Origin: Myxococcota bacterium
GTDB taxonomy: Bacteria > Myxococcota_A > SURF-8
Length of the DNA: 64,000 nucleotides
Direction: 5' to 3'
Assembly (NCBI GenBank): GCA_965140415.1
Contig: OZ223209.1
Location: 3,200,001 to 3,264,000, forward strand
The translations under genes and the position numbers were made by a program. This document shows positions 7,779 to 58,987 of this stretch, one piece after another; position 1 is the first letter of the stretch, and every line of letters starts with the position of its first letter. Under the pieces are notes generated by a model. The model saw only the letters and a list, made by a program, of their open reading frames with translations, was not told where the DNA came from and did no database searches.

Positions 7779-7813
7779 GATCACGCAGAAAAGTAGAAAG
7801 ATCGGGTGGATAG

Positions 7814-9043
7814 ATGAGAAGTTACTGGTCCAGCCTTTTTAGAGACACGTTAACGATGATCCTGGCCGGTGGGCGTGGCGAACGATTGTCTCCATTGACC
7901 TTGCCGCGTTCCAAGCCATCGGTGCCTTTTGGTGGAATGTATCGCATTATCGATTTCACACTTTCGAATTGCGTCAATTCCGGTTTTCGTAGAATCTATC
8001 TGTTAACTCAGTACAAAAGCCAGTCTCTCGACGAGCATACGGCAAGAGGCTGGAACCTGTTCTCTCACGAATTGGGAGAGTTCATGTACAGCGTTCCTCC
8101 GCAACAGCGCTACCGAGATCGCTGGTATATGGGGACTGCCGACGCCATTTTCCAAAACTTGAACTTGCTTGCCAAGCACCAGCCTAAGTATGTGCTGGTA
8201 CTATCCGGCGATCACATCTATAAAATGGACTACTCCAAGATGCTTGCCTACCACGTCGAAAAAGGGGCAGACATCACGATCTCGACTATTCCCGTCACGA
8301 AAGCCGAAGCGACCCGCTTTGGAGTCTGTGGTGTTGACGCGGACAACCGGATACTGAAATTCCAGGAAAAAGAAAACAATCCGATGGAAATGCCCAATCG
8401 TCCCGGCTGGTGCATGGGAAGCATGGGTGTTTACATTTTCAATACCGAAGTATTAGCCAAAGAAATCTCCCGAGACGCCAAACAAAAGTCAGAGCACGAT
8501 TTCGGGAAAAACATCATTCCGAACGTTTTGAACAGCGGGCGTGTGTTCGCGTATGAATTCGAAGATTTGAATCGGAAAAACAAACCTTATTGGCGAGACA
8601 TCGGAACCTTGGACAGCTATTTCGACGCTTCGATGGATCTTGTCTCAATCGACCCTGAATTCAACTTGTACGATTCCGACTGGCCCATTCGAACGTATAT
8701 CGGCCAGTACGCTCCGACCAAAACCGTCTGGCGAGGGGAAAAACGCCGTGGTCAACTTATCGAATCCATGGTTTGTAACGGAGTTATCGTTTCCGGTGGT
8801 GAAGTCATTCGCTCTATCCTGAGTTCGGGAGTTCGCATCAACAGCTACTCTCACACTGAAGAATGCATTCTTTTCAATGATGTCGATGTCGGTCGAAACT
8901 GTCGTATGCGGCGTGTCATCATAGATAAAAACGTCTCCGTTCCGGAGAATACCGTCATCGGTTACGATCACGATCAAGACCGAAAACGCTTTATGGTGAC
9001 GGATAACGGCATTACCATTATCCCCAAAGGCTATATTTTCTAG
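7814..9043 (+). CDS. glgC: Glucose-1-phosphate adenylyltransferase
   Basis: ILAGGRGERL, KPSVPFGG, GTADAI, LSGDHIYKMDY, DFGKNIIP, YWRDIGT. Confidence 0.97.
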   Translation: MRSYWSSLFRDTLTMILAGGRGERLSPLTLPRSKPSVPFGGMYRIIDFTLSNCVNSGFRRIYLLTQYKSQSLDEHTARGWNLFSHELGEFMYSVPPQQRYRDRWYMGTADAIFQNLNLLAKHQPKYVLVLSGDHIYKMDYSKMLAYHVEKGADITISTIPVTKAEATRFGVCGVDADNRILKFQEKENNPMEMPNRPGWCMGSMGVYIFNTEVLAKEISRDAKQKSEHDFGKNIIPNVLNSGRVFAYEFEDLNRKNKPYWRDIGTLDSYFDASMDLVSIDPEFNLYDSDWPIRTYIGQYAPTKTVWRGEKRRGQLIESMVCNGVIVSGGEVIRSILSSGVRINSYSHTEECILFNDVDVGRNCRMRRVIIDKNVSVPENTVIGYDHDQDRKRFMVTDNGITIIPKGYIF

Positions 9044-40179: not shown

Positions 40180-41358
40180 TTGAAAATGGCTGTCGATCAA
40201 GGAATCTGCTATGTGAACACCTCGTTTGGGGCCTGTGGAATCGGATGGCAACCCGACGGTATTGACCTGCTTCAACTGCCGGATCGAGATGCGTCTGCGA
40301 TGCTGGCTCGTTTGCAGCAACTGGCTCCAACTCGTCCTCTAACGGCAGATGCCCCTGCTTTCGTGCTTGATGCGGCGCGCATGATTCAACAGTACTTTTC
40401 CGGCGACATTCCCGATTTCAAAACCGTGCCTGTCGTCTATCCCAAAAATAGCAGTGCTCGTAAAACGTATGACGCGCTTAGGAACATACCAGCCGGAAAT
40501 ACCATTACTTACGGTGAGTTGGCAAAAAGGAGCGGCCACCCGAATGCGGCTCGGGCCGTAGGGCGTCGTATGGCGCAAAACCCGGTCCCGCTGATCGTTC
40601 CCTGCCATCGGGTGCTGCCGAAGTCGGGAGGTCTGGGCGGTTTCAGCGCCGGAGAAGGCGTTTCGTTAAAGGCGCGCATGTTGCATCTTGAAGGCTACCA
40701 TTTCAGTGAAAAGCACCACCGGGCGCTGATGCATTTGAGCGAGTGCGACCCGAAAATGAAAGACCTGAGCCATCGCTACGGTCCATACCTTCCGCTGCTG
40801 GTCGATCCGGGAGATCACTACAGCGCCTTGATCGAAATCATTTTGAGCCAGCAGGTAGCGACTCAGGCCGCGAAAACGATCTGCTCCCGCTTCCGAAAAC
40901 TGACGAATAACAACACATTTCCATCTGCGGAAAAAATCCTTACATTAAGCGAAGAGGATTTCAGGGCAACCGGCATCAGCAAGCAGAAAGCCTCGTACAT
41001 TCGGGATCTTGCAGAAAAGGTACTGCAACAGGAGTTGCCGCTGAAACAGTTGTGGCGCTATTCGGATGAGGAAGTCATTCAGGTGTTGACCAAGGTTCGC
41101 GGTTTGGGGCGCTGGTCGGCTCAGATGTTTTTACTGTTCCAGTTGAAGCGACTGGACCTGCTGCCGGTGGATGACCTGGGATTCCGTAACGGCCTGGCCG
41201 AGTTATATGGCGAGAAGCATATTGCAACCGCCGATGCGATGAAAGCCTTTGCAAAAATCTGGCAGCCTTACCGTTCTGTCGCCTGTTGGTATTTATGGCA
41301 GAGCCGATCCCCACAACGCCGCAACGACCTGCCGACCGAAGGGGCTCTTAACGTATGA
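40180..41358 (+). CDS. Ogt (O6-methylguanine methyltransferase)-AlkA (3-methyladenine glycosylase) fusion
   Basis: TYGELA, ARAVG, VPCHRV, then ILSQQV, VRGLGRWSA (HhH), LPVDDLG, WQPYRS..YLW. Confidence 0.9.
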   Translation: MKMAVDQGICYVNTSFGACGIGWQPDGIDLLQLPDRDASAMLARLQQLAPTRPLTADAPAFVLDAARMIQQYFSGDIPDFKTVPVVYPKNSSARKTYDALRNIPAGNTITYGELAKRSGHPNAARAVGRRMAQNPVPLIVPCHRVLPKSGGLGGFSAGEGVSLKARMLHLEGYHFSEKHHRALMHLSECDPKMKDLSHRYGPYLPLLVDPGDHYSALIEIILSQQVATQAAKTICSRFRKLTNNNTFPSAEKILTLSEEDFRATGISKQKASYIRDLAEKVLQQELPLKQLWRYSDEEVIQVLTKVRGLGRWSAQMFLLFQLKRLDLLPVDDLGFRNGLAELYGEKHIATADAMKAFAKIWQPYRSVACWYLWQSRSPQRRNDLPTEGALNV

Positions 41359-41380
41359 CTTCAATCATGGGAAGATCATA

Positions 41381-42070
41381 ATGCCGAATAATTCCGATGC
41401 ATTGATTCACTTTGTACGAGAGCGTCTGGACGCGATTCGCGATCCGCAGCGTGCAAAGGAAATGGCGGCGTACATGAAAACCGACATGCCCTTTTTCGGC
41501 GTTAAGGCAACGGAACGGAAAAAGATCGAACGACTGATTCCGAAGCATTTTCCGGTTGCAAATCGAAAACAATACGACCGGAACGTGCGCGAGCTCTGGA
41601 ATCAACCGGAACGCGAGTGCAAATACCTAGCAATTTCAACCGCCCGCGCGTTTTCTGCCTATATCGATTCTTCTTCACTTCCGTTGTATCGGACGATGAT
41701 CATTCAAGGAGCCTGGTGGGACCTGGTGGATGAAATCGCGGTGCATCTGGTTGGAGAAGTGCTGAGAAAACAACCGGAAAAGGTGTATCCGCTGATGGAT
41801 GCCTGGATCGAAGATGACGATCTGTGGGTTCGGCGTACGGCGATTTTATGTCAGATTCGTTTCAAGGAAAAAACGGATCGTGAGCGGCTTTTTGCGTATT
41901 GCCTCAATCACGCCCATGAAAAGGATTTCTTCATTCGCAAAGCGATTGGCTGGGCGCTACGAGAGTATTCAAAAACCGATCCAGAAAAAGTATTGGATTT
42001 TTGCGAGAAACACCGTGAAATCCTGGCCGGATTGAGTTATCGTGAGGCGACTCGAAGGATCGCGAGATAA
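41381..42070 (+). CDS. AlkD-like DNA alkylation repair protein
   Basis: AYMK..FFGV, WWDLVD, WVRRTA, FFIRKAIGWALREYSK. Confidence 0.9.
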   Translation: MPNNSDALIHFVRERLDAIRDPQRAKEMAAYMKTDMPFFGVKATERKKIERLIPKHFPVANRKQYDRNVRELWNQPERECKYLAISTARAFSAYIDSSSLPLYRTMIIQGAWWDLVDEIAVHLVGEVLRKQPEKVYPLMDAWIEDDDLWVRRTAILCQIRFKEKTDRERLFAYCLNHAHEKDFFIRKAIGWALREYSKTDPEKVLDFCEKHREILAGLSYREATRRIAR

Positions 42071-43440: not shown

Positions 43441-45807
43441 ATGAATCGATTCCTTTCCAGAAGTCAGCCACGGCGTTTTCCAATTCTTCTGAGTTCCGAC
43501 ACTCGATGGCCTGTCGCCATTCCTGCGAAAAAAGCTCCTGATAACGGCGATGTGAGAACCGCTCGTCGATCAGCACGACCAGACCGGTATCCGTTTCGCT
43601 GCGAATGACGCGGCCTGCCGCCTGCCATACGCGATTCAATCCGGGAAACTGGTAGGCGAATTCGAAACCGGAGCGATTCTTTTCATCGAAATAGGATCGG
43701 ATCAGATCCCGTTCCATGCAGAGTTGAGGCAGGCCGACGCCGATCACGATCACTCCGCTTAAACGTTCGCCGGTCAAATCGATGCCTTCTCCGAATATCC
43801 CGCCCATAACGGCAAAGCCGATCAGACTTTTTATAGGGGATTCCGTAAAGTTAGCGAGAAACGACTCGCGCTCTTCTTCCGCCATCGAAGGTGTTTGAAC
43901 AGCGTTTGGCATTTGACTTCCAAGGTTTCGAAGCAGGACAGCACGTCCCGCAAATACTGATAGGATGGGAAATACGCCAGGTAGTTTCCGATACGGGAAG
44001 ACACAATGTTGTGCAGGTTTTGGGCGATAACTTCATAAGAATCGGCTCTGCGTTTATAGCTTGTAGCGATGCCATGATGGACAAAGCGCCCCAGGTTCTC
44101 TTTCGGAAATGGCGAGGGCAACTCTCCGCTGGTATCATCCGGTTGGGCTCCATAGAGTTCCATGAAGTAAGGCAAGGGGGAAAGCGTCGCCGAAAAAAAG
44201 ATGGTGGCGCGAAATCGCCCGGTGGCTTGAGCCAGTAGCTCGCTCGGGTCCAGGCAATAAAGCCGTACCCGACAATCGGAGGCAGCCGCTTGCAGGATGC
44301 TGCGATAGTGATCGTCGAACAACTCTTCGGTGCGCAGATAGCGTAACACCTCGAAATAACAATCTAATATTACTTCCATATTAGGACTTTGCGGATTCTC
44401 CAGCAACCATTTTTCAGCGGCGGTGCTAAAGCTTCGCAGCCGCTTGGAGAGTTTGGCTATCGGTTCAGCTTGTATCAAACGCTTTTCAGGTTGAACCTCG
44501 CAGAGCTTTCGAATTTCCAGCATGGATGAGTTGATGTGAGAGACCAACTTCGCGCCTTTAGGCCAACTCTCTTTTAGTTCGCGTTTCAAGGCAAGAAAGG
44601 TCGCCTTGTTCAATTCCGCCGAAAACATGTCGCGTGCGCGATCGGCGAGATTGTGGGCTTCGTCGATCAGCAGGATGAAGTCGGTTTCTCCATTTTCGAA
44701 AAAACGCCGCAACGACACGCGCGGATCGAAGACATAATTGTAATCGCAGATGACCACATCCGCCCAGAGCGAAAGATCCAGCGAGAACTCAAACGGACAA
44801 ACCCTGTGCTTTTTCGCTGTACTTTCAACAACTTCTCTCGTCCACGTGTCTTGCATGAAGAGATCGGCGGTGGCGTCGTTGATGCGATCGAAATGACCGC
44901 GAGCATAGGGACATTCGTCCGGGTGACAGGCGGCTTCCGGTTCGAAACAGATTTTCTCTTTGGCGGTCAAGGTCAGGCTCTTCAATTTCAAACCGGAGCG
45001 GGACATTTCTTCAATCGCCTGCTGAGCGACCGTTCTGCCAATGGTTTTGGCCGTCAAGTAAAAGACTTTCGAAGACAAGCCTTCGCCAAGGGCTTTGACT
45101 GCGGGAAAAAGAACGGCAATGGTTTTACCGATGCCGGTTGGAGCCTGCGCGAAAAGATTATGCTGTTCCTGAATGGAGCGATACACGGCAACGGACAAAT
45201 TGCGCTGTCCCGCCCGATAATCCTGAAACGGGAAACTCAGTGTTTGAATGCTGGAGTTTCTCTTGCTGTGCCATTCTTTAAGCGTTTTCGCCCAGTTGGA
45301 ATACCGTTGCAGCAGATCGAAAAAGAAGTCGGATAACTGCTCGAAGGAAAAGTCGTCGTTGAATTCCTTTGTCTCTGCGCTGTCCAACTGGAAATACGTA
45401 AGCTGTACACCCATTTTCGGAAGCTGATATTCCAACGCGTAGAGATACGCATAGCATTTCGCCTGCGCCCAATGCTGTGGATAGCTATGAAATTCAATCG
45501 TTTCCAGCGCTTTCGAGGTGGTTTTGATTTCGTCGATGACCACGGGATCATGTCCGGAATACACGCCGTCCGCACGTCCCTGTACGCGAATGCCAAGACC
45601 ATCGACTTCGTAAATGGTACTCAATGCCACTTCGGATTGATAACTTTCCGGGCGTGATTTCTGAACTTTCTGATGACCTTTTGTGCCAGCCACCGCGCGG
45701 CTGCTGCCTACGAATTCCGTTCGCAAATCGCCCTGACGAAGCACGAATTCGACTAACTCGCGAACGGAAATAGATAGATCCGGTGTTTCTAAACGTGACG
45801 TCGTCAT
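43439..45807 (-). pseudogene. XPD/Rad3/DinG-family Fe-S helicase with N-terminal PD-(D/E)XK nuclease, 1-nt frameshift near 43900
   Basis: GRADG..IDEIKT, APTGIGKT, Fe-S Cys residues, DEAH in one frame; GGIFGEGID and QAAGRVIR in the next frame. Confidence 0.85.
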
Positions 45808-46634
45808 TCAGAAAATGCCCGCTCGTTTTCAAGGCAGGAGATCGTGGAGAGAATCATGTTTTTCATGCTCACGTTTCCCATGCAGATCAGGCGAACCATC
45901 CAATCTTCTTTAAGTTTTGCTCGCTTCATGATTTCCGTAGCGTTATTACCTTGTTGCCAGAGAAGTTTTACCGAACCGTAAAAATCTTCTAAAAACTGAA
46001 GCTTGGCTTTCATGTGGTCGTGACCTTCAGTCAATCGCGGATGATGGCAGCAGAAAATGGTATCGAATTCGTATGTAAGAATCTTTTGCAGCGAATGGAT
46101 TTGATCCAGAATGCGTTCGTCTGCGCGAAAGAACTTGATGCGGTCAGCCAGATACAGATCGCCTGAAAAAAGCCAGCCCCGATTTTTTTCAAGATAGACG
46201 CAGTGATCTTTGCTGTGACCGGGAGTATGAATCGGCGTCAAGCGATAGTTTCCAAGATCGATATCTTCGTTGCATTCCGACATTTCCATGCGCTCCGCCG
46301 CCCCCCAGACGAAATGCTGATATGGAAAAATTCGCGACGGTTTTTGCATTGATTCAACGGTCAATGAATGCCCAAGTACTGGAATATTATATCGATTTGA
46401 GATTACGGCGGCGTTACCGGAATGGTCTTCGTGATGATGCGTTAACAGAATGCGCTGCGGCTTTTTCGAATCGACCCACTCCAAAACCGCCCGACGCATG
46501 TTGCGCTGCCCGGTGTCGATCAAGGTTGAATTCAGCGAATAAAGATAAACGGTCATCAAAGGAGGCAGAAAAGGACCATATCCCAATTCCAGAGCCTGTA
46601 CTTCCTTGAAATCATGTGCTTTTATAATGTGCAT
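45804..46634 (-). CDS. MBL-fold metallo-hydrolase
   Basis: THHHEDHSG, TPGHS, FSGD. Confidence 0.9.
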   Translation of the reverse strand: MHIIKAHDFKEVQALELGYGPFLPPLMTVYLYSLNSTLIDTGQRNMRRAVLEWVDSKKPQRILLTHHHEDHSGNAAVISNRYNIPVLGHSLTVESMQKPSRIFPYQHFVWGAAERMEMSECNEDIDLGNYRLTPIHTPGHSKDHCVYLEKNRGWLFSGDLYLADRIKFFRADERILDQIHSLQKILTYEFDTIFCCHHPRLTEGHDHMKAKLQFLEDFYGSVKLLWQQGNNATEIMKRAKLKEDWMVRLICMGNVSMKNMILSTISCLENERAFSE

Positions 46635-46821
46635 CGACTTGACTTCTTCTCCACTTACATCCAGAAATCGCCCGTGACGTGTGGTGGTCTGCTTCTATCA
46701 CCTTTGAACTTTATTTCGTTTTCGACCATTCACGCAAGCATAGTATCATAAATATCGATTCCCCCTGCCCTTCTTTTATAGTGAGCCAATAGTTACGGCA
46801 AACGGCTATATTGGACGCGAA

Positions 46822-47025
46822 ACGACCGGTAAACGAACAGTAAATAGCCGCCAAAAGACCGTAAATTGCCAGTGGTCCATTCACGCATGTTGTCAGTTGC
46901 TGTCTGCTGTTATATTACGCTGCGAAGTGCTGCCTCATGCTGCACTATAAAGCACTGTCACTCTTCGTGCCTTTAGTGGCGTTTTACTGGTTGTTTACTG
47001 TGCGTTACCGTGCCAAGGCGGTCGT
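46822..47025 (+). repeat. Imperfect inverted-repeat element built from about 11-bp units
   Basis: 46827-46871 is complementary to 46977-47010. Confidence 0.6.
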
Positions 47026-47134
47026 GCCCGATGCTATCTTATTTACAAGTTCTCTCTCTGCATGAGCATACCAATATATCATGTTCCAGCGTCGAGGAAT
47101 TAAGCGGTGACAGTCAAGCATCCGATTGTTGCAT

Positions 47135-47249
47135 AAAATAAGAACCCCGTAAGCAGTGCGGGCGCCCCCCCAACCTGCTTACGGGGTTTACTACAGGGAG
47201 ACCATCTTATTATTCTAAAACTGGGACTCGCCACGGGCCCTGTAGTGAG
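47135..47249 (-). ncRNA. Candidate small RNA (5' stem + terminator)
   Basis: ACTACAGGG/CCCTGTAGT stem, then a perfect 14-bp stem AACCCCGTAAGCAG/CTGCTTACGGGGTT and a U-rich tail. Confidence 0.5.
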
Positions 47250-47258
47250 TCATATCAT

Positions 47259-47275
47259 ATGAAAAATGCGTGCCA
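47259..47275 (-). promoter_or_regulatory. Sigma54-like promoter
   Basis: TGGCAC-GCATT-TTTCA (consensus TGGCAC-N5-TTGCW, one mismatch). Confidence 0.45.
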
Positions 47276-47892
47276 CCTTTCTAAGCAGTAGTAATTCCAC
47301 AAGATAATTAATATACTTACCTGAAACCATCAAAAACACGCCCGGAAACTCTGACAATCGTGTCGCAGTGTCAAGAGATAGGTAAAGAAAAGCTGTCTAT
47401 CGATGTTTTATTCGGGACTTCCGGCTAAAACTCCTGGAAGAGCAAGCACGACAGATTTGTCATGCTCTCCCTGAAAACGGGCAAATTTGCTTAAGTTACA
47501 ATGACCTGTAAACCGAAGTCATTTAAATCCAGAAGCGCCCCCAATTCCCCAATCTTCTCGTTCTCAAAATCAGCGATTACCAACGATGCCACTCAAGTAA
47601 GCGACTCAAAGTTAAATTATTGCTAAACAGTGGAAATAAAACGCTTTCCCCGCCCGTCCATTCATTAGCTCAATAGAGCACCGTTTTTGTGATACTTTAT
47701 GATAATACTCGATGCAACAAGGTTTTAAGGAAACCGTAGAATGTCCCCAAACAAGTTTCTTTTCAATTGGAAATATTCACGGATCGATTCCCCTCTATCA
47801 GGATGCCAACTCAACTGGCAGATTCAGTACGAAACCAAAACCATTTCCGGTTTTTATAAAAGCAACCGGCACCAACCAATGGAGGATACGAG

Positions 47893-49158
47893 ATGTCCAA
47901 CTGGGATCTGAAAGAATTCAATACCCACCTGCTTCGCTGGGAAGAACGTCGTCAGGCGCTACGTGAGCAATCTCAAAAGCTTAGGGCAAGCAACCTGCCG
48001 TTGAAGTTTTTGCGCCAGCAATCTCACTTCACCACTCCCGCCAGCAATTACGACATGGTATTGAAAGCCGTCGAAAAAGGCAGCTCGGCAACCCGCAAGA
48101 TTCTGGAAAAATTCGATATTTCCACCACTCAATTAGCCGAGACGTTGGATATTTCCACCGCTTTTCTGGAAAGAGAATTGCAGCGCGATCCCGGTGCACC
48201 ATTGGTGATGGTCGATGGCGAAGACGCACAGGCACTGAGAGACGATGTCGTGGAGCGCGGGCGCGCCAATGCAATCCGAATTTTCAAGGAAGCCAACTGG
48301 GGTAAAACCCTGCGTTTTTATCGCCCCAGCGGGCTGAATCTGGATTACTCCTTAAAAGATATCCTGATCGTTCTCACCGAAAGCGCCAAGGGCTTGCCAC
48401 CGGAGAAATTCCCCATCGACGGCATTATCTGGCCCAAGGCCGAACACCCGGAAGAGATCGCCTTGATCGTTGAAATTCTTGGTGAAATCGAACACAATCT
48501 CGGACTTGCTGAGAATAGCATCAAAATGCAGTTCCTGGTCGAATCCGGCTACGGAGCCGCCCAGCTGCCTTCGTTGGTCAAGGCTGCCATCGGTCGTCTT
48601 GCCGGCCTGGTTTGGGGCATTGCCGATTATTCGGCAGACATCGGATTGCCGGAGATCGAAAACGGCCACCCGGTTTGCGACTGGGTCCGTTCGAACATCA
48701 TCAATATGGCAGGAGCTGCCAACGTTCCCGCCATCGATAATATGACCGTCAATTACCCGGTTCCCAATAAAGATCTTTCCTTGGCTGAAAACAGAAAGCT
48801 GATACTGGATCGCACCCGCGAGGTCTATTTGGACGCCGTGCATGGACGCGATCTTGGTATGGATGGAAAATGGGTCGGCCATCCGTTGCAGCTATTCGCC
48901 GTCAAGCTGGCTTATCGCCTGGGACTTACAGAAGAAGATGTCAAGGCCGAAGTCGACAAGATCGACGCCTACACCCAGGCCGTCGATGCCGAACAGGGAG
49001 CGACGATCATCAAAGGCGTTATGAGCGACCGGGCGACCGACCGGCATGCGCGCTTGAAGCTGCGCAAGGCGGTTGCGTTGGGAATGCTGGATGCCCACAA
49101 AGGCGTTGAGCTGGGAATCGTTACACAACAAGAAGCGGATGAACTCAAGCAAGGCTAG
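47893..49158 (+). CDS. mcl: HpcH/HpaI/CitE-family lyase, probable malyl-CoA/beta-methylmalyl-CoA lyase
   Basis: SHFTTPA, MVDGEDA, WPK, LVES, WGIADYSAD, GMDGKWVGHPLQ; first gene of the EMC operon. Confidence 0.75.
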   Translation: MSNWDLKEFNTHLLRWEERRQALREQSQKLRASNLPLKFLRQQSHFTTPASNYDMVLKAVEKGSSATRKILEKFDISTTQLAETLDISTAFLERELQRDPGAPLVMVDGEDAQALRDDVVERGRANAIRIFKEANWGKTLRFYRPSGLNLDYSLKDILIVLTESAKGLPPEKFPIDGIIWPKAEHPEEIALIVEILGEIEHNLGLAENSIKMQFLVESGYGAAQLPSLVKAAIGRLAGLVWGIADYSADIGLPEIENGHPVCDWVRSNIINMAGAANVPAIDNMTVNYPVPNKDLSLAENRKLILDRTREVYLDAVHGRDLGMDGKWVGHPLQLFAVKLAYRLGLTEEDVKAEVDKIDAYTQAVDAEQGATIIKGVMSDRATDRHARLKLRKAVALGMLDAHKGVELGIVTQQEADELKQG

Positions 49159-49185
49159 CTCGAATCCGGCATTAAAGGAGATTCC

Positions 49186-50901
49186 ATGTCGAACGAAAAG
49201 AATGTCGTCCAACTCGATGCTGCGGCTCACGCTCTACAGTTGCTGTTCGATCTGCTGAATTCCGCCAGCAGCGAATTGAAGGCACGAAGCAGTAAGGATG
49301 GCAGGCTGTCCACGTCCTTGTTGGATAAGAACCAGTTGGCCTCCTACGACCTGGCCCTTTGCTATGCCGAAGCCACAGCGGCACGTTTCGTGCTGGACTA
49401 TGCCCGGCGAGTCGAGCAGGCTCGGGGGAACGATCAACCGGAGTTCGCCATAGAGCAAAGGCTGGCCACATTTTTCACGGCGGAGGCGATTCAGTCGATT
49501 CGAGGACGACTCGGAGCCCGTCCTTCCGATTTCGGGCTGACCGGCACTCTTTTGGATACGACCTTCGGCGATGATTCCGTTCATGGCTTTCTGATGCATG
49601 AGCTTTCCGTTGCACATATTGAAGAGCTGGGTCAGCGAATTGCGGAGTTGAATGGCCGCACGGGTGCGTATCTGATTGAGGAAGATCACGAAATGATGCG
49701 CGAGAACTTCCGCAAGTTCGCAAACGATGTCGTCATGCCGCTTGCCGAGTCGATCCATCGCGACGATCTGATCATTCCCGGCGAAATCCTGGAACCTTTA
49801 AAAGAACTCGGCTGCTTTGGTTTGTCTATCCCGGAGCGTTTCGGCGGTCTGCAAAGCGACGATCATGAAGACAACATGGGAATGATCGTCGTTACCGAAG
49901 AACTTTCTCGCGGCTCTCTGGGTGCGGCGGGCAGCTTGATTACTCGCCCGGAAATCCTTGCCCGAGCTTTACTGAAGGGTGGCACCGAAACGCAAAAAGA
50001 AACCTGGCTGCCTAAGCTGGCAATGGGCGAGCCGCTATGCGCCGTGGCCGTAACCGAACCGGACTACGGCTCGGATGTGGCCGGGATGAAATTCAAGGCG
50101 ACCAGAACCGAAGGCGGTTGGCTGCTCAATGGCTCGAAAAGCTGGTGTACCTTTGGCGGTAAAGCCGGTGTGCTTTTGGTGCTAGCCCGCACCAATCCGG
50201 ACATGAAACTGGGACATCGCGGATTATCGATGTTTTTGGTGGAAAAGCCCTCCACCGATGGTCATGAATTCGAGCACGAGCTTCCCAACGGCGGAAAAGT
50301 CAGCGGTCGCGCCATTCCCACTATCGGCTATCGCGGAATGCATTCTTTCGATGTGTTCTTCGAAGACGTCTTTGTGCCGAACGAAAACCTGCTTGGCGGC
50401 GAAGAAGGCGAAGGCAAAGGCTTTTACTTTACCATGGCAGGTTTCAGCGGCGGACGCATCCAAACCGCCGCCAGAGCGGTTGGCGTGATGCAGGCTGCGT
50501 TTGAAAAAGCCGTCAGCTATGCTTCGGAACGCAAGGTATTCGGCAAGCCGATTGGAGAATATCAACTGACGCTCGTCAAGCTGGCCCGCATGGCTGCGCA
50601 CCTATTGGCTACGCGCCAGTTCACCTATTCCGTCGCACGCTTGATGGATCAGGGCCAGGGATCGATGGAAGCGAGCCTGGTGAAACTGTTTGCAGGCCGT
50701 AGCGCAGAATGGATCACACGCGAAGCGGTGCAGATCCACGGCGGCATGGGTTACGCCGAGGAAACCGCCGTCAGTCGCTATTTTCTCGATGCCCGCGTGC
50801 TCTCCATCTTTGAAGGAGCGGAAGAAACGCTTGCGCTGAAAGTGATCGCGCGCTCCTTGATCGAAAACGCCGCAGTCCTTTCCAATCCGGCGGAGGTATA
50901 A
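49186..50901 (+). CDS. mcd: (2S)-methylsuccinyl-CoA dehydrogenase-like acyl-CoA dehydrogenase
   Basis: N-terminal extension, VVTEELSRGSL, GSLITRPEI, IGYRGM, RIQTAARA, DARVLSIFEGAEE; operon context. Confidence 0.85.
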   Translation: MSNEKNVVQLDAAAHALQLLFDLLNSASSELKARSSKDGRLSTSLLDKNQLASYDLALCYAEATAARFVLDYARRVEQARGNDQPEFAIEQRLATFFTAEAIQSIRGRLGARPSDFGLTGTLLDTTFGDDSVHGFLMHELSVAHIEELGQRIAELNGRTGAYLIEEDHEMMRENFRKFANDVVMPLAESIHRDDLIIPGEILEPLKELGCFGLSIPERFGGLQSDDHEDNMGMIVVTEELSRGSLGAAGSLITRPEILARALLKGGTETQKETWLPKLAMGEPLCAVAVTEPDYGSDVAGMKFKATRTEGGWLLNGSKSWCTFGGKAGVLLVLARTNPDMKLGHRGLSMFLVEKPSTDGHEFEHELPNGGKVSGRAIPTIGYRGMHSFDVFFEDVFVPNENLLGGEEGEGKGFYFTMAGFSGGRIQTAARAVGVMQAAFEKAVSYASERKVFGKPIGEYQLTLVKLARMAAHLLATRQFTYSVARLMDQGQGSMEASLVKLFAGRSAEWITREAVQIHGGMGYAEETAVSRYFLDARVLSIFEGAEETLALKVIARSLIENAAVLSNPAEV

Positions 50902-50904
50902 ACC

Positions 50905-52080
50905 ATGTCTTTCTCTTTCACTGCAAACGATCAACGTGAATTGGCCAATTCGGTCCCCGTCGATCTTAAGCAAGCGAGTTTCCCTCAATATGGCCGTTAC
51001 CTGGACGATTTCAACCCAGGAGAGGTTTTCGCTCATCCGCGAGGTTTTACTTTTACCCGCAGTGCGATGATCGCATTCTCACGCACCTTCTTGCAGGCCA
51101 ATCCACTGTATCTAAACGTGGAATATGCCCGCGCGCTGGGCTTTGGCGATCTTCCGGCTTCGCCGCAGATGGTATTCAATGTCGTCCTGTCTTTGGGCGT
51201 GCAAAACGACTCAGAAAAGGCCATGGCGAATCTGGGTTACTATCAGGTCCAATTCCTGCGGCCTGTCTACCCCAACGACACTCTAACCGCCATGACGCAG
51301 GTTGTAGAGCGCAAAGAGCGCGGTGAAGACAAGCCCGGCATCGTGAAAATCCGAACGCTGGGCCTCAACCAGGATGGACAGGTTGTCTTGCAGTACGAAC
51401 GCAAGATCATGGTTCCCTGGCGCGGCAATCGCCCCGGCACAAGTCAGCCAAAGGCAGAATCGGTGCAATTCCCATGGGTCGAGCGAGCGTCCATCGAGTT
51501 ACCTCTGGCTGCTTCAGGTTCTCATGAACAGCTTACTGGAGAGACATACTACGAAGATTTTTCGGTGGGCGACATTATCGTACATCCAAACGGGCGCACG
51601 ATTACCGACGAGCACCTGGCGCTGACCTATCTTACCGGCAATACGCATCCGCTGCATTTCGACAGTGTGTACAGCCAGGGATTGAACGGAAAAATGAGTG
51701 GCACTCCGATTGTCTATGGCGGGCTGGTTTTCGCCTGGCTCGATGGTCTGGCCAGTCGCGACATCGGAGAAAACGCCCTCTGGGAGCTCGGCTTCACCGA
51801 GGGCTACCACACGCAACCTGCCGTCAGTGGCGACACGGTCTATGCGATTTCCCGCATTCTGGCGAAAGAAGATCTGGATGATTCGAACGGAATTCACGCC
51901 GGAATCGTAACGGCACAACTGATCGGCGTGAAGAACATCAGTGGAAAAAATGCGCTGGAAAGCTTTGGAGAAGGTCTCTTTTTAAAAGAAAACAACAAGA
52001 AGAAGCTGGGTAAAGACAAGATTCCGCAAAAGATTTTTGAGATCGAGCGCAGACTGCTTCTTTTAAAACGCCCTCTATAA
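50905..52080 (+). CDS. mch: Mesaconyl-CoA hydratase (double MaoC)
   Basis: GRYLDDF, ANLGY, NTHPLHF, VYGG; operon context. Confidence 0.8.
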   Translation: MSFSFTANDQRELANSVPVDLKQASFPQYGRYLDDFNPGEVFAHPRGFTFTRSAMIAFSRTFLQANPLYLNVEYARALGFGDLPASPQMVFNVVLSLGVQNDSEKAMANLGYYQVQFLRPVYPNDTLTAMTQVVERKERGEDKPGIVKIRTLGLNQDGQVVLQYERKIMVPWRGNRPGTSQPKAESVQFPWVERASIELPLAASGSHEQLTGETYYEDFSVGDIIVHPNGRTITDEHLALTYLTGNTHPLHFDSVYSQGLNGKMSGTPIVYGGLVFAWLDGLASRDIGENALWELGFTEGYHTQPAVSGDTVYAISRILAKEDLDDSNGIHAGIVTAQLIGVKNISGKNALESFGEGLFLKENNKKKLGKDKIPQKIFEIERRLLLLKRPL

Positions 52081-52088
52081 AGGAAACG

Positions 52089-54116
52089 ATGATGGCAGAC
52101 TCGCCCTCCAGCAGCAAACGCGACCGCCCCTGGCTGATGCGAACCTATTCAGGTCACTCTTCTGCACGTGCATCCAACGAGTTGTATCGCACCAATTTAA
52201 GCAAGGGACAAACCGGCCTGTCCGTTGCTTTCGATCTGCCGACCCAGACCGGCTACGATGCCGATCATCCGCTTTCAAAGGGTGAAGTAGGCAAAGTCGG
52301 CGTACCGATCGCTCATATCGGCGATATGGACATCCTGTTCGACCAGATCCCCCTGGATAAGATGAACACGTCGATGACCATCAACGCAACGGCAGCCTGG
52401 CTGTTGGCCATGTACGTCGCCCTTGCGGAGCAGCGGGGCATCGATCCCAAAGAGTTGCGTGGCACGACCCAGAACGACATCATCAAGGAATATCTGTCCA
52501 GAGGAACTCATATCTTTCCGCCGCAGCCTTCCATGCGCTTAACGGTGGATACAATCAATTATGCCGTCTCCAATCTTCCGCATTGGAATCCGATCAACAT
52601 TTGCAGCTATCATTTGCAGGAAGCCAGCGCGACGCCGGAACAGGAACTGGCCTATGCGCTCTCCGCAGCGATTACCGTGCTGGATTCCGTGAAAGCATCC
52701 GGCCAGATCTCCGATCAGGATTTTCCGAAGGTCGTGGGTCGCATCAGCTTTTTCGTCAATGCCGGAATCCGCTTCATCGAAGAAGCGTGCAAGATGCGCG
52801 CATTCACGGAAATGTGGGACACGATTACAAAAGAACGCTACGGCGTGGCAGATCCCAAACTGCGTCGCTTTCGATACGGCGTACAGGTCAATTCACTGGG
52901 CTTGACCGAATCGCAGCCGGAGAACAACGTCCAGCGGATCGTACTGGAAATGCTGTCCGTCGTCTTAGGCAAAAACGCCAGGGCGCGCGCCATTCAACTG
53001 CCCGCCTGGAACGAAGCCTTGGGACTGCCTCGCCCCTGGGATCAGCAGTGGTCCCTGCGCATTCAACAGATTATGGCCTATGAGACCGACCTGCTTGAAT
53101 ACGGAGATATTCTTTCCGGTTCACCCGTCATCGAACGGAAAACCCATACTTTGATCAGCGGTGCCCACAAAGAAATGGCCGAGATCGAAAAGCAGGGAGG
53201 CATGCTGAACGCCGTTGAAAACGGTTATGTAAAACGACGCCTTGTAACCAGTCATTCCGAGCGTTTGCGCGCCATTGAATCCGGCGAACGGGTTGTGGTT
53301 GGCGTCAATCGTTTCAAAGAAACGGCGGATTCGCCATTGGTCGCCGGTTCAGACAGCGGCATCATGACTGTAGACGCCCGTGTGGAGCGCGAACAGATCG
53401 AACGGCTGCAAGCTCACCGGGCGCGTCGTAACCAGGCGGAAGTCGAAGCCGCCCTCGCTCAACTGCGCGATGCGGCATTAACAAACGAAAATATCATGCC
53501 GGCCTCCATTCGTTGCGCCAAAGCCGGTGTCACCACCGGTGAGTGGGGAAACCTTCTGCGAGACATCTTCGGAGAATACCGACCGCCAACGGGAATCGAC
53601 ATCTCCATCCGCCAGATAGACCGAAGCGACAACGAGTTTCGTCTGCGAGATGCCGTACATCAAACTGGTGAAGAGTTGGGACGTCCGTTAAAGATCCTGG
53701 TTGGAAAACCGGGCTTGGACGGTCACAGCAACGGCGCGGAACAGATCGCGGTAAAGGCGCGTGACGTCGGTTTTGAAGTGGTTTACGAAGGCATTCGCCT
53801 GACGCCGGAACAGATTGCCAAAGCCGCCTTGGAAGAAGGCGTGCACCTGGTCGGCTTGTCGGTTCTCTCCGGCAGCCACTGCGAACTGGTAGGCGAAACG
53901 ATGGGTCAGCTACGAACCGCAGGATTGGAAAATCTTCCGGTCGTGGCAGGCGGCATCATTCCTCCTGCCGATGAGCAGTATCTGAAAGAACTAGGCGTTG
54001 CTTCAGTTTACACGCCCAAAGATGCGGATCTGAATCGAATCATGGCGGATCTGATCGCCATCATTCGCAGCAGAAACAAGCTTGCGGCATTACCGGAACT
54101 CATTGAGAATCGATGA
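52089..54116 (+). CDS. ecm: Ethylmalonyl-CoA mutase (B12-dependent)
   Basis: RDRPWLMRTYSGHS, NICSYHLQE, RFRYGVQVNSLGLTE.QPENN, KPGLDGHSNGAEQIA. Confidence 0.95.
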   Translation: MMADSPSSSKRDRPWLMRTYSGHSSARASNELYRTNLSKGQTGLSVAFDLPTQTGYDADHPLSKGEVGKVGVPIAHIGDMDILFDQIPLDKMNTSMTINATAAWLLAMYVALAEQRGIDPKELRGTTQNDIIKEYLSRGTHIFPPQPSMRLTVDTINYAVSNLPHWNPINICSYHLQEASATPEQELAYALSAAITVLDSVKASGQISDQDFPKVVGRISFFVNAGIRFIEEACKMRAFTEMWDTITKERYGVADPKLRRFRYGVQVNSLGLTESQPENNVQRIVLEMLSVVLGKNARARAIQLPAWNEALGLPRPWDQQWSLRIQQIMAYETDLLEYGDILSGSPVIERKTHTLISGAHKEMAEIEKQGGMLNAVENGYVKRRLVTSHSERLRAIESGERVVVGVNRFKETADSPLVAGSDSGIMTVDARVEREQIERLQAHRARRNQAEVEAALAQLRDAALTNENIMPASIRCAKAGVTTGEWGNLLRDIFGEYRPPTGIDISIRQIDRSDNEFRLRDAVHQTGEELGRPLKILVGKPGLDGHSNGAEQIAVKARDVGFEVVYEGIRLTPEQIAKAALEEGVHLVGLSVLSGSHCELVGETMGQLRTAGLENLPVVAGGIIPPADEQYLKELGVASVYTPKDADLNRIMADLIAIIRSRNKLAALPELIENR

Positions 54117-55174
54117 TGATGACAGGCATCGACAGTTCGTCCGACATTTCCACATTGGCCGTTCGCATCCAGCAAGGCGACCGGATCGCAATTGCCAATG
54201 CGTTGAACCTGATGGACGACCGACGTGCCAGTTCCCAAGACCGCGCGTCGATTTTGCTGGATTCACTAATCAACTCAGAATACGAAAATGACCGCCACCT
54301 GATCGGATTGACCGGCCCACCCGGAGTCGGCAAATCGACTTTAAGCTCCGCGTTGATTGCAGCCTGGCGCAAGCAGGGGAAAACGGTCGGCGTGTTGGCG
54401 GTCGATCCTTCCAGTTCCGTAACGGGCGGGGCGCTGCTCGGCGATCGACTACGCATGATGGCGGGCAAATCCGATACCGGCGTTTTCATTCGCTCCCTGG
54501 CGGGACGTGGCGAACATGGAGGTCTGGCCGCTGAAATCTGGCCGATGAGTCAAGTGCTTATGGCCGCGTTCGATCGCATCTTGATCGAAACCATCGGTGT
54601 CGGTCAATCCGAAATCGATGTTGCCACGATCGCCGACACGACCTGTTTCGTAGCGCAACCGGCAGCAGGCGACAGCATCCAGTTTTTAAAAGCGGGAGTC
54701 ATGGAAATCCCGCACATTCTACTCGTCAACAAATCGGACCTTGGAAAAATTGCGGAACAAACCCAAGTGGAATTGCAACGCGCCCTGCCTTCTTTTGAAG
54801 ATTCCGTATCCCTGCGTTGGCGCTCTCAGATCCAATCTGTCAGTGCGCTTACCGGAGCGGCCATTCCCGATCTGGTCGATCAGATCGAACGCCATCGACA
54901 CTGGCTGATCGATCACAACTTGTTACAAACCAGACGTAAAGAGTTTCAGATCGACTGGGTGCTAAAGCGCCTGCAATTGGAATTCGGCTCGTTTGGTATT
55001 GACCGACTTGGTGGAAAATCCAAAATTTCCAAAGCTCTGCTTCATTCCCAGGATTCTCCATTTTCCAGATACCGCATCTATCGACATCAATTGACTGCCG
55101 CCTTTTCGGCGGATGTCGGACAAAATTACAACCACAGCGAAAAGGACTTGAGTGATGACCAAAGATCTATATGA
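54113..55174 (+). CDS. meaB: MeaB/ArgK GTPase chaperone of the B12 mutase
   Basis: [42 protein letters not shown]. Confidence 0.93.
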
Positions 55175-56936
55175 CATCGGTGAAGCTCCCCCATTAGGAA
55201 TCGTCCCCCCAAAAATGCACGCATGGCTGATACGCGAGGAACGATTCGGCGAACCGATGAAAAGTTTTCAGAAAGAAGTCGTAGACGTACCTGAAATCAA
55301 GGACGATGAAGTCCTGGTTTACGTCATGGCGGCGGGAGTCAATTACAATAACGTCTGGTCCGCCCTGGGTACGCCGGTCAACGTCATTCAAGCCCGCCAG
55401 AAGCAGGGAGAAAAGGAAGACTTCCACATCGGCGGCAGCGACGCCAGCGGCATCGTGTACAAAACGGGGAAAAGCGTCACCAATGTCAAAGTCGGCGACG
55501 AAGTGGTGATCCACTGCGGCAGTTGGAGCCAGGATTGTCCCATGGTGCAGCGCGGCGAAGACCCGATGTTCAGCCCGACGTTCCGAATCTGGGGCTATGA
55601 AACCAACTACGGCAGTTTCGCTCAGTTCACTCGCGTTCAGGGACACCAGTGCCTGCCCAAGCCCAAGCATCTAAGCTGGGAAGCGGCTGCCAGCTACATG
55701 CTGGTAGGGGCTACGGCCTATCGTATGTTCCTTGGATTAGGCGACAAGTCATTGAAAAAAGACGACGTGACCCTGATCTGGGGCGGTGCGGGCGGCTTGG
55801 GTTCCATGGCCATTCAAATTGCAAAAGCCGTCGGAGCGATCCCGATTGCAGTCGTCTCCAACGACAACAAATTCGAATATTGCGAAAGCCTGGGGGCGAA
55901 AGGCTGCATCAACCGCACGCATTTCGACCATTGGGGAATGCTGCCCCACTGGAAAGACACCGCAGGCTATGCCAAGTGGTTCAAGGGCGTTCGGAAATTC
56001 GGCAAAGCGCTTTGGGATGTGCTGGGAGAGAAACGCGCACCGCGAATCGTCTTCGAGCATCCCGGAGAGGCGACCATCCCGACATCCCTTTTCGTAGCGG
56101 AGACCGGCGGCATTGTGGTGATCTGCGCAGGAACCACCGGTTACAACGCCACCGTGGATCTTCGCTATCTCTGGATGCGCCAGAAGCGCGTACAGGGTTC
56201 GCATTTCGCCAACGATGTGCAGGCGGACGGATTTAATCGCCTGGTGATCGAAGGCCTGGTCGATCCCTGCCTGTCGAAGTCGTTTACCTACAATGAGTTG
56301 CCGCTTTCTCACCAATTGATGTACGAAAACAAGCACCCGCACGGCAACATGGGCGTGCTTGTCGGCGCGACGGAATTCGGCCTGGGAATTTCGGAAAAGA
56401 CACCTCATCCATCGCCATTCTTCGCTTTGTCAACGGACGATACCCACGACAAAGTCCCCCCGTATCCTCTTTCCACGCCGACTCCGAAATTCATTACGGA
56501 GCCGCTTGAAACGTTGGAACTGGAACTGGTTGACGACGGAACTCTGGTGCGCGATCTCATGCATCCGGGGCTTGTCACCTGCTCACCGAGCGATTCGGTG
56601 AAAGAGGTCGCGACCCGCATGGTTGAAAACGATATCCATGCCGTGGTTGTCGTTTACGATGCGGAACCGGTGGGCGTGGTCTCACAAACCGATATGGTGC
56701 TCGCCCGCCAGGGCCGCAGCGCCGATGCGGTGAAAGGATTGAAAGCCAGCGACATCATGACGCCCGGCTGCGTAACCTGTACGCTGGATACCTCTCTATC
56801 CGATGCCGTTTCCACCATGACCGGGCTGCGCATCCATCGTCTGATCGTGACCAGACAGGATCACGGACAAAATGTCCCCATCGGCGTGATTTCGATGACG
56901 GACATCATCCGCAAACTGGTGGTAGACGCCAACTGA
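55155..56936 (+). CDS. ccr: Crotonyl-CoA carboxylase/reductase fused to a C-terminal CBS pair
   Basis: [40 protein letters not shown]; then a linker and two CBS motifs. Confidence 0.93.
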
Positions 56937-56971
56937 GCAGAATTCCGTTGACGTTCAGTGACGATACGATT

Positions 56972-57000
56972 CCGCCCCGGTTATCCGGGGCGGTTTTTTT
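56972..57000 (+). terminator. Intrinsic terminator of the EMC operon
   Basis: CCGCCCCGG-TTAT-CCGGGGCGG-TTTTTTT. Confidence 0.9.
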
Positions 57001-57013
57001 ATTAAGTGAGCTA

Positions 57014-58987
57014 CTATTGAAGTTCTTCTACATGATGGGCGGGAACCGAAACGCCGTCGATGCTGCGCTCTTGCTCATCGGGATTGAAAGCGACCCGCGT
57101 TCCATCCGGCAAGCGCCAGATCAGCGGCAACACATGATGGTTGCTGTTCAGAATCGAATCCGATACCGAAGTTACCAGATAGTCCGGTGGTTCCGCAGGG
57201 AACAGATCTTCCGGCACCGAAGGTTCTCCGCTTAAGGACGCGGAAATAATTGTAGAAGTCAATCCCCAGCTACGGCGCGCTTCGTCCAGTTCGGGAAGAT
57301 TGTCGCTCAAGAACAAACCGCCTCCGCCAAAGGCCACCACCCAGGCGCCCATATCCACTTCATTTTGCGGCAGGGTGCGCAATAGAGGGGGATCGGGGTC
57401 GCATAGAGTGGCATAACACATCATATAGCGAGCCGAAACCGCACGGGCTTCATTGACGATGAAGTAGTAATTCGCGCCGGTCTGCTCGAAAGCGATATCC
57501 GGTCCCAGTCGCCAGGCATCGACATGTTCGAAGCTGGGTGTGGGAGGCGCGCCGACGGCCAGCAGAATCACCTCTTCTCCGGCAGCTTCACGAATAATCG
57601 ATAGCGCCTGATGGTACGCCTGCATCCCGGTGACATCCTGGCTGCGTCCGCCTTCATACGTTCCGGCGAACAGGAAATCGATTTTCAAGAAGTCATAGCC
57701 CCAGGAAACGATTTGCTGAATGAATCCCGCCAGATGAGCTGCGGCATCCGGTTGCGTAACATCCAGAATGCGCATATCGCCATGCATCGGATGCCCGAAG
57801 CTCGATCCGGTTACGAACCAGTCGGGATGCTCAGTAACCAGATCACTATCCGAATCGACCAGCAACGGAGCCAGCCAGACACCGATTTCAAAGCCCTGCT
57901 GATGCATGTCATCGGCCAGTCCATTCATGCCGGAAGGGAACTTCTCGTTGGGCGTCCATTCACCCCAGGCTTGCTGCCAGCCATCATCCACGACGATTCG
58001 CATTTTCTTATCGCTCGGGATCTGATCCTGTAAAATCGTTTTCGCGATAGCGGCATTGGCCTGAACGTCGGATTCCGTGACTTTGTCCCACAGTTCATAC
58101 CAGGAGTTCCAGCCCGCATCGGCTTTGGCTACAACGGTCTTTCTTCTACTGGGAAGCTCCCGCCCAAATGCTTCTTGTGTCGCGTGCAGATCCTTACCGA
58201 GCCAGATACGCCAGGATTCCGAAGTAACGGAATCCCCACTGTTCAACGAAATGGCCTCTCCGGTTGAACCATTGACCAGACGGACACCCACGGGATGCTC
58301 GGACGTCTCAGAATCGGTGTAGGCTTGCAACCAGGATTTGAAAAGCTGCGAGCTTACGGCTCCGGCAAACAGGCTGTATTCCCCGCCACCCACAGCCGTA
58401 TACCACCAGGAAAGTTCCTTACCGGATCGAACGGTCTCCGTGTTTCCGGTCGCCGCAAGCGCTTCATCCAATTCCTCTTCGGTCGGTTCGGCATTCAAGG
58501 CGATCATACCGCTTTGCGACCAGGATTGAAACCCGTTGGACAGCCATGCGCGAGCGCCGGGAAGCTTTACATGTCCTGTAAAAGAGAAGGCGTTGAGTGT
58601 AACCGCCTGCTCGGCACTGAAGCTCAAGGAGGCCAGTCCATCTTCGTAACTCAATAAAACTTTTCCGAAAGAATCGATGGCGCAGGAAAGCCCTTCATCC
58701 GTTTTCTCGCAGGAAGTGTCGGTTTGCACGTCGTACCACTGGCCATCCAGTTGAACGGCAGGCAGCATCAACCACTCCGCTTCTCCACAACCGACGGAAA
58801 GCGTCAAGCCCGTAGAATCCAGAGTCGCCTGCATCGTATCGCAAGTCGCTTCCGAATCCGTCTCCGACTCTCCGAATTCTTCGGAATCCAAATCACCATC
58901 TGCCACGGTTTCGTCCGAATCGCCACAACCATTGAGAACAAGCAGAACGAACAGAAAGAAAGCGACAACCATCGATTTGACACTCAT
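57014..58987 (-). CDS. GH36/GH27-clan alpha-galactosidase-like lipoprotein
   Basis: Lipobox LNGC; NGFQSWS, GWNSWY, VDDGWQ, GVWLAP, LKIDFL, RLGPD, DPD. Confidence 0.85.
   Translation of the reverse strand: MSVKSMVVAFFLFVLLVLNGCGDSDETVADGDLDSEEFGESETDSEATCDTMQATLDSTGLTLSVGCGEAEWLMLPAVQLDGQWYDVQTDTSCEKTDEGLSCAIDSFGKVLLSYEDGLASLSFSAEQAVTLNAFSFTGHVKLPGARAWLSNGFQSWSQSGMIALNAEPTEEELDEALAATGNTETVRSGKELSWWYTAVGGGEYSLFAGAVSSQLFKSWLQAYTDSETSEHPVGVRLVNGSTGEAISLNSGDSVTSESWRIWLGKDLHATQEAFGRELPSRRKTVVAKADAGWNSWYELWDKVTESDVQANAAIAKTILQDQIPSDKKMRIVVDDGWQQAWGEWTPNEKFPSGMNGLADDMHQQGFEIGVWLAPLLVDSDSDLVTEHPDWFVTGSSFGHPMHGDMRILDVTQPDAAAHLAGFIQQIVSWGYDFLKIDFLFAGTYEGGRSQDVTGMQAYHQALSIIREAAGEEVILLAVGAPPTPSFEHVDAWRLGPDIAFEQTGANYYFIVNEARAVSARYMMCYATLCDPDPPLLRTLPQNEVDMGAWVVAFGGGGLFLSDNLPELDEARRSWGLTSTIISASLSGEPSVPEDLFPAEPPDYLVTSVSDSILNSNHHVLPLIWRLPDGTRVAFNPDEQERSIDGVSVPAHHVEELQ

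Follow-up and report, generated by a model that had tools for sequence, protein, structure and literature searches.

Crotonyl-CoA carboxylase/reductase (Ccr) is the CO2- and NADPH-consuming entry enzyme of the ethylmalonyl-CoA pathway, which serves in acetate assimilation. Enoyl-CoA carboxylases/reductases (ECRs) form the core of synthetic CO2-fixation cycles and, to our knowledge, are the fastest CO2-fixing enzymes. The CO2 pocket of the Kitasatospora setae Ccr is formed by Asn81, Phe170, Glu171 and His365, and a Tyr at position 170 also keeps water out (PMC6628652). The subunits of ECR tetramers have been described as opening and closing in a coupled half-site cycle that involves the peripheral catalytic domain, C-terminus included, with residues E151, N157 and N218 coupling the two dimers in the K. 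setae enzyme (PMC9413435). In Accumulibacter, Contendobacter and Defluviicoccus the pathway has been considered as a redox sink under anaerobic conditions and as a supplier of propionyl-CoA (PMC12604563, PMC8956781, PMC9041414), and ccr transcripts of Contendobacter are described as being up more than four-fold. The ccr gene considered here lies in a stretch of 64,000 nucleotides (the window; positions 3,200,001 to 3,264,000 of contig OZ223209.1, assembly GCA_965140415.1) from the genome of a Myxococcota bacterium, referred to below as the host. In its product, here named Ccr-CBS, the catalytic enzyme is followed by a linker and a pair of CBS domains, that is, a Bateman module. The gene is real, intact and conserved, and its CBS tail is a widespread add-on which was found described in no paper.

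The open reading frame (ORF) of Ccr-CBS runs on the + strand from 55152 to 56936 and would encode 594 amino acids if initiated at GTG, while the ATG at 55155 gives a protein of 593 amino acids with no internal stop. As the homologues open with the same MTK(E/D)LY that Ccr-CBS has at 55155, this position is the likely ccr start. The fusion gene (55155..56936, 593 amino acids plus stop; TIGR01751 and Pfam) can be divided into three parts on the same strand, namely a Ccr catalytic body of residues 16–413 with the pocket N65/Y148/E149/H350 (55200..56393; TIGR01751, residue mapping and Foldseek), a linker of residues 414–460 (56394..56534; predicted local distance difference test (pLDDT) and homologue alignment) and a CBS pair of residues 461–593 (56535..56933; two PF00571 matches, invariant columns and fold elements of the model). 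Pfam placed ADH_N at residues 50–171 and ADH_zinc_N at 214–353, and matched PF00571 in two stretches with 86.1 bits against a cut-off of 24, the best stretch being 465–517. The linker of about 47 residues is rich in Pro, Thr and Glu and is partly conserved at the motif P-Y-P-x-S-x-P-x-P, with D461-G462 closing its end; across 45 homologues its length varies from 43 to 56 residues. An earlier reading of this DNA made from the letters alone (the sequence-only reading) had proposed both the uninterrupted frame and the succession of a Ccr, a Pro/Thr/Glu-rich linker and two CBS motifs, and both were borne out.

The catalytic body scored 562.4 bits against TIGR01751, the equivalog model of crotonyl-CoA carboxylase/reductase (cut-off 378.55), with residues 16–413 lying on model positions 3–397 of 398. 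Its ADH_N and ADH_zinc_N domains are those of a medium-chain dehydrogenase/reductase (MDR) fold with a Rossmann NADPH domain, and Foldseek gave template modelling (TM) scores of 0.84–0.89 to solved ECRs. The pocket was mapped through P0156, a representative of the K. setae type which aligns without gaps to the K. setae chains and whose own numbering gives N81-T82, F170-E171 and H365. By this route Asn81, Phe170, Glu171 and His365 of the K. setae enzyme correspond to N65, Y148, E149 and H350 of Ccr-CBS, and the second-shell Ser119 corresponds to S95. In the fused homologues N65, E149, H350 and S95 are each kept in 45/45, and Y148 is kept in 44/45 with Phe in the remaining one. The CO2-binding residues had also been recognized in the sequence-only reading as the Asn of an NYN motif (N65), a GYE motif (Y148-E149) and the His of a GSH motif (H350), in agreement with the mapping. 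Judged by the equivalog match and these residues, the body is a genuine crotonyl-CoA carboxylase/reductase with every published carboxylase determinant, predicted to carry out the reductive carboxylation of crotonyl-CoA to ethylmalonyl-CoA. It is also the one Ccr above the TIGR01751 cut-off in the whole host genome, which is assembled as one contig (5,975,757 bases, completeness rated at 93.7%) and in which no match to isocitrate lyase was found. With a sole Ccr and no isocitrate lyase found, Ccr-CBS would be the only entry to what is seemingly the only route of acetyl-CoA assimilation in the host.

A fusion of this kind could arise as an artefact of a frameshift, a misassembly or the read-through of two genes, and some public gene calls would seem to suggest this. 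A search with the tail only among short proteins gave 152 matches, many of them entries of 119–165 amino acids named 'CBS domain-containing protein' in Accumulibacter, Competibacter and Contendobacter with 55–61% identity (P0392, P0406, P0422, P0428 and P0442 are examples), and the two parts are interrupted in 2 of 79 genome loci (L041 and L047). However, the short CBS proteins begin at an internal Met within the conserved linker motif. Both parts were found in 78 of the 79 metagenome loci with a short CBS protein (L090–L168), and in 77 of these 78 they form one open frame, the lone stop, in L132, being the natural gene end. Of the 55 metagenome loci with room for it, 45 have MeaB immediately before ccr, and Ecm lies upstream in 38 of 43. 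Because Ccr and tail share an open frame, the short CBS proteins are internal-start gene calls and not separate genes; the split-gene reading of these entries was ruled out, as they lie inside fused genes. It should be noted that public annotation often splits off the tail as a separate protein in this manner, which hides the architecture. Contigs from three public runs of one study (X1, X2 and X3) span the linker with no differences, in line with the single frame of the sequence-only reading. X1, possibly the source of this genome, extends over the whole stretch, X2 covers 55073–56851 and X3 covers 56157–56556; a strain variant of X3 has an in-frame deletion of 12 bases at 56847, in the variable loop of CBS2. 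No RNA dataset was present among the listed public runs carrying the sequence. In-frame fusions are moreover found in 35 of the 79 genome loci. An artefact is already refuted at the DNA level, and the probability left to it is negligible.

The sequence-only reading had regarded the fusion as an unusual architecture, which was not upheld. MDR and CBS parts are combined in all 120 of the best database matches (of 8000 scored); 101 of them, the query included, have 571–599 amino acids and 19 have 732–786. In a genome search 577 species-genome stretches were found to encode relatives. The fused loci among the best 79 of these 577 include 32 that are complete and 3 that are cut by contig ends, and beside the two interrupted loci there are 42 unfused ones, which gave no CBS match within the flanking DNA analysed (up to 9 kb to either side). 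Cultured holders of the fusion are Caenispirillum salinarum, C. bisanense and Defluviicoccus vanus, and metagenome-assembled genomes with the fusion are labelled Competibacteraceae, Chromatiaceae, Gammaproteobacteria, Rhodospirillales, Mycobacteriaceae and Anaerolineae. The fusion also occurs in Accumulibacter-type contigs, Actinomycetota and Chloroflexota, well-studied wastewater bacteria and soil bacteria being among the holders. Within the order of the host, Ccr is present in 3 of 10 genomes and fused in all three, one of which shares the whole six-gene operon described below; in a 301-genome sample of its phylum, Ccr is present in 56 genomes and fused in at least 11, with one more reaching a contig end. 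MetK placed the host only roughly, its nearest named matches (at 67–72%) being labelled Proteobacteria, Deltaproteobacteria, Thermodesulfobacteriota, Geobacteraceae and Deferrisoma, and the tails of unfused Ccr proteins of its phylum resemble one of Polyangiaceae, which would suit a place in Myxococcota. In a library clustered at 50% identity the entire fused group is one representative, and the other near-full-length top relatives have about 400–450 amino acids. Some long Ccr-like representatives with 37–43% identity, namely P0168 (711 amino acids), P0201 (591), P0189 (2640) and P0217 (562), hint at further fusions.

To place the fused enzymes among their relatives, a maximum-likelihood tree was constructed from 94 Ccr bodies; L007, whose match was too short, the partial L013 and L046 and the interrupted L041 and L047 were left out. 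All 40 fused rows fell within one clade (support 99/88), which also includes the unfused Ccr of Telmatospirillum, and the unfused sisters of this clade are from Binatota and Myxococcota. The fused/unfused label changes exactly twice on the tree (2–2 over 5–95% of the bootstrap trees). The tree is rooted at the midpoint only, so that the direction of the gain and loss events is one which we infer. The simplest history would be a single fusion with subsequent spread across Chloroflexota, Actinomycetota, Pseudomonadota and the phylum of the host, the tail being lost once and the CBS pair duplicated once. Within its Ccr subclade the fusion is ancient. The Ccr of Telmatospirillum sp. J64-1 (L040), nested in the fused clade, is 77% identical to Ccr-CBS and ends after the catalytic body at 423 amino acids, with no CBS match within the 19-kb locus, and may serve as a natural tail-less control. 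Three long forms (756–786 amino acids) consist of a Ccr and two tandem CBS pairs. Their pairs A and B are 45–57% identical to each other, and the CBS pair of the window is 49–53% identical to each of them, so that the four-CBS form goes back to an internal duplication. Mean pairwise identity among the fused homologues is 0.78 for Ccr, 0.58 for the CBS pair and 0.35 for the linker. Since the CBS pair is better conserved than the linker and the strain deletion is in frame, the tail is, by this comparison, kept under selection.

The CBS pair was examined for ligand signatures. The motif of CBS1 is G507-V-V-S-Q-T-D513 and that of CBS2 is G577-V-I-S-M-T-D583, with G507, D513, G577 and D583 invariant in the 45 sequences and a Ser at position −3 of each Asp (S510-Q-T-D513 and S580-M-T-D583). 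R562 likewise shows no variation and H561 is kept in at least 90% of them, and by analogy with AMPK these two residues may be phosphate contacts. In CNNM2 a Thr-x-x-Asp motif (T568, D571), located where the last strand ends and the helix makes its first turn, contacts the ribose, and Bateman modules usually pair into a disc (PMC6429129). The S/T-x-x-D ribose signature together with the H-R pair makes an adenosine ligand plausible. The sequence matches of MJ1225 (E 7e-10) and of AMPK gamma-1 to the CBS2 part (E about 1e-4) are weak. In the full-length structure model (pLDDT 76, predicted TM-score (pTM) 0.64), which was built on an alignment of 45 sequences at about 70% identity and hence of shallow diversity, body and tail are both folded and the CBS elements from H465-468 to H581-588 have a pLDDT of about 80; low values are found in residues 303–349 of the Rossmann domain.

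Taken together, Ccr-CBS is the genuine and sole Ccr of the organism with a C-terminal Bateman module on a flexible tether of about 47 residues, and we lean, without strong conviction, towards the module regulating the enzyme through an adenosine-type ligand. This ligand would be a small molecule that contains adenosine, with AMP, ADP and ATP as the likeliest candidates. Binding would alter the packing of the module, either against the module of a subunit next to it or against the mobile catalytic domain at the periphery, to which it is tethered, and this repacking would tune the open/closed subunit cycle on which the fast turnover of ECR tetramers depends. The outcome would be a post-translational control of the entry of carbon and reductant into the pathway, of use to bacteria that live through cycles of feast and famine or of anoxic and oxic phases. 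A regulatory role of the tail is likely, and allosteric gating by what is most probably an adenosine ligand is plausible; the control by energy charge put forward in the sequence-only reading is a putative one.

Several results weigh against this proposal. The nearest solved CBS pairs in a PDB sequence search are without an informative ligand, and the protein Atlas gave only generic CBS clusters for the tail. Linker residues 420–457 have a pLDDT below 50 and the placement of the tail is not confident. When the four-CBS tail was modelled (P0391, aligned with 19 long forms), each pair folded, with a pTM of 0.47 and no disc, and the top Foldseek matches of this model, AMPK gamma and MJ1225, had a root-mean-square deviation of about 18 Å. 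The residues E151, N157 and N218 are not conserved in the fused Ccr, so that this subclade may not share the half-site mechanism. In Telmatospirillum the tail was lost and a 77%-identical enzyme was kept, so that at least one lineage can dispense with the tail. Finally, the host genome gave no PhaC_N match and no class III PhaC above cut-off; without a polyhydroxyalkanoate (PHA) synthase above cut-off in the host, the storage-polymer rationale is not valid for all holders, and PHA cycling was dropped as a general rationale.

The signatures also leave some room for an allosteric sensor of a different kind, responding not to energy charge but to a non-adenylate ligand such as S-adenosylmethionine, cyclic di-AMP (c-di-AMP), NAD(P)H, a diadenosine polyphosphate or an acyl-CoA. 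Such a sensor would report a second messenger, a redox cofactor or feedback by a product of the pathway. The S/T-x-x-D motifs specify only a ribose with free hydroxyls; DarB is a receptor of c-di-AMP (PMC9293649), the PDB title of 3te5 names yeast AMPK gamma with NADH, and the proposed function of the pathway as a redox sink in these bacteria (PMC12604563) would be in keeping with a ligand of this sort. However, no sequence signature favours any of these candidates. H561 and R562 would presumably, by analogy with AMPK, also fit phosphate contacts with a mononucleotide, and a non-adenylate ligand is considered unlikely, if a reading to be taken seriously. A smaller chance is given to the Bateman module being a thiol/redox (or metal) switch in which C539-x-x-C542 and C476 would change state between anoxic and oxic conditions, with an effect on the enzyme. 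Of 177 anchored short forms, 153 have the C-x-x-C motif at the start of CBS2 (56769–56780), 21 have a single Cys and 3 have none (a further 11 short forms could not be anchored), and the Cys of CBS1 (C476, 56580–56582), which lies on the equivalent strand, occurs in 172 of 175; at least 90% of the sequences in the homologue alignment keep C476 and C542, and many holders inhabit alternating anaerobic/aerobic reactors. Yet the first Cys of the motif is missing in 24 of the 177 short forms and in all three four-CBS forms examined, and conservation is stricter at the ribose-binding Asp residues than at C539. In the model, C542 is placed in strand 541–543 and C539 in the preceding loop, which is not the classical redox-active helix-cap geometry.

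It is equally improbable that the tail has no ligand role and serves in assembly, solubility or co-localization, by bridging subunits or tethering pathway enzymes. Such a role would be in agreement with the common self-association of Bateman modules into dimers (PMC6429129), with the duplication of the pair in the long forms and with Telmatospirillum dispensing with the tail. It does not fit well with D513, D583, R562, G507 and G577 being invariant while a large part of the remaining module varies, and stand-alone Ccr enzymes assemble into a tetramer without any tail (PMC9413435). Under the preferred reading, in which the module senses an adenosine-type ligand, a further step may tentatively be suggested, and with more doubt than assurance. 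Among natural ECRs, Ccr-CBS could be the first to be controlled directly by allostery, with the tail reading an adenylate signal, or an adenylate and a thiol-redox signal, and switching the CO2-fixing entry step on and off within minutes. If this were true, wastewater bacteria that accumulate phosphate or glycogen, and many bacteria of soils, would be able to redirect acetyl-CoA and reductant between storage, redox balance and growth without new gene expression. A built-in sensor would explain post-translational control of the ethylmalonyl-CoA pathway, and a Ccr equipped with one would give a handle for switching the enzymes used in synthetic CO2 fixation.

Ccr-CBS is encoded by the last of six tightly packed genes on the same strand which make up an ethylmalonyl-CoA pathway operon. 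The first of these (47893..49158, + strand) encodes an HpcH/CitE-type lyase-like protein of 421 amino acids with matches to Pfam DUF6986, HpcH_HpaI and MS_TIM-barrel, a candidate malyl-CoA/beta-methylmalyl-CoA lyase. It scored 73.8 bits against the NCBIfam model of malyl-CoA lyase, for which the cut-off is 500. A 65% identical counterpart lies at the same position in a relative (G005), but among the 79 genome loci only weak matches, with 27–28% identity, were seen close to ccr, in 3 loci; the product may be a non-canonical lyase for the final step of the pathway. It is followed on the + strand by an acyl-CoA dehydrogenase of 571 amino acids with an N-terminal extension (49186..50901; Acyl-CoA_dh N, M and C domains at 166–558), which resembles methylsuccinyl-CoA dehydrogenase (Mcd) and has 69–72% identity to the genes at the same position in L009, L012, L017, L019, L029 and L034. 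Next are a mesaconyl-CoA hydratase (Mch; 50905..52080, +; PF19315 MC_hydratase, 86 bits) and a B12-dependent acyl-CoA mutase with a fused B12 domain (52089..54116, +; MM_CoA_mutase and B12-binding), which is similar to ethylmalonyl-CoA mutase (Ecm) and 61–75% identical to ccr-adjacent mutases of other genomes. The MeaB-type G-protein chaperone of the mutase (54113..55174, +; PF03308 MeaB, 242 bits) scored 239.4 bits against TIGR00750, slightly below the cut-off of 240.75, and the end of its gene overlaps the ccr start by 20 bases. An epimerase is encoded elsewhere in the host genome. Linkage of ccr with ecm, mcd and mch is also kept in the relative G005 and in Accumulibacter-type contigs.

An intrinsic terminator closes the operon (56972..57003, +), with 9 G-C pairs, a loop of 4 bases and a T-run, as had been noted from the sequence. 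Its hairpin at 56972–56993 has 9 G-C pairs versus 3 in each of the other 10 terminator-like sites between 46600 and 57150, and a search of 46000–57500 against Rfam gave no matches. The region of about 1.26 kb upstream of the operon (46635–47892) contains only short unannotated ORFs of 56–84 amino acids and is unusually long for a promoter region.

Elsewhere in the window a glycogen gene cluster was observed at 44–9043, with a GH57 amylase/4-alpha-glucanotransferase, a DUF4912 protein, a GH57 branching enzyme and a glycogen synthase. A PAS histidine kinase is set within this cluster, which further encodes a nucleotidyl transferase that resembles ADP-glucose pyrophosphorylase and bears a GlmU-like hexapeptide domain. 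Two further regions of note are 40180–42070 and 43831–45807. An ORF of 392 amino acids combines a methyltransferase (Ogt-type) with an HhH-GPD glycosylase and adjoins a DNA alkylation repair protein, and near it lies a DinG/Rad3-like helicase with an N-terminal PD-(D/E)XK nuclease domain.

A full-text literature search, with subscription journals and supplements outside its scope, found no publication joining Ccr, ECR or the ethylmalonyl-CoA pathway to CBS or Bateman domains, and the view of the sequence-only reading that the fusion had not been characterized is consistent with this result. Supplementary tables of Ccr screens might mention such fusions. Among the best 15 of 23 matches of a full-text search on allosteric regulation of Ccr, none concerned this subject by title or start of abstract. 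The term 'CBS' is absent from PMC12604563, PMC8956781 and PMC9041414, which deal with Accumulibacter, Contendobacter and Defluviicoccus, and from a 2025 preprint on ECR structure.

Of the described enzymes, 4GI2 and AntE (4Y0K) are close to the body of Ccr-CBS, with 55–57% identity over about 405–409 columns, TM-scores of 0.84–0.89 and 492–532 bits, and 9KVA falls in the same range. 4GI2, which is cited as an ECR structure of primary metabolism (PMC9413435), and AntE are like Ccr-CBS in having the same CO2-pocket residues and the pathway neighbours ecm, mcd and mch. All solved Ccr and ECR matches in the PDB, however, are stand-alone chains of 410–467 residues which match the query within residues 1–427 at most and have neither linker nor CBS pair, so that the earlier statement that known Ccr enzymes stand alone applies to every matched chain. 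The K. setae Ccr (6OWE, 6NA3) has the same pocket residues at 39% identity, with its Thr82 corresponding to Asn66 in Ccr-CBS; it is without a regulatory domain, and its E151, N157 and N218 are not kept in Ccr-CBS. The four-CBS Ccr of Chloroflexota belongs to the same Ccr subclade and differs in its two tandem pairs in place of the single one in Ccr-CBS. AMPK gamma and the archaeal MJ1225 are adenylate sensors with four CBS domains, but they are separate regulatory subunits or proteins, and their disc was not matched by the tail model. The nearest functional analogue of the proposed mechanism is the CBS domain-containing pyrophosphatase (CBS-PPase), although its CBS pair is inserted within the enzyme instead of being carried on a long C-terminal tether, its catalytic fold is unrelated and no sequence relation to Ccr-CBS was seen beyond the CBS family. 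This metabolic enzyme forms tetramers in which each subunit carries one CBS pair, and adenine nucleotides set its activity (PMC11172384).

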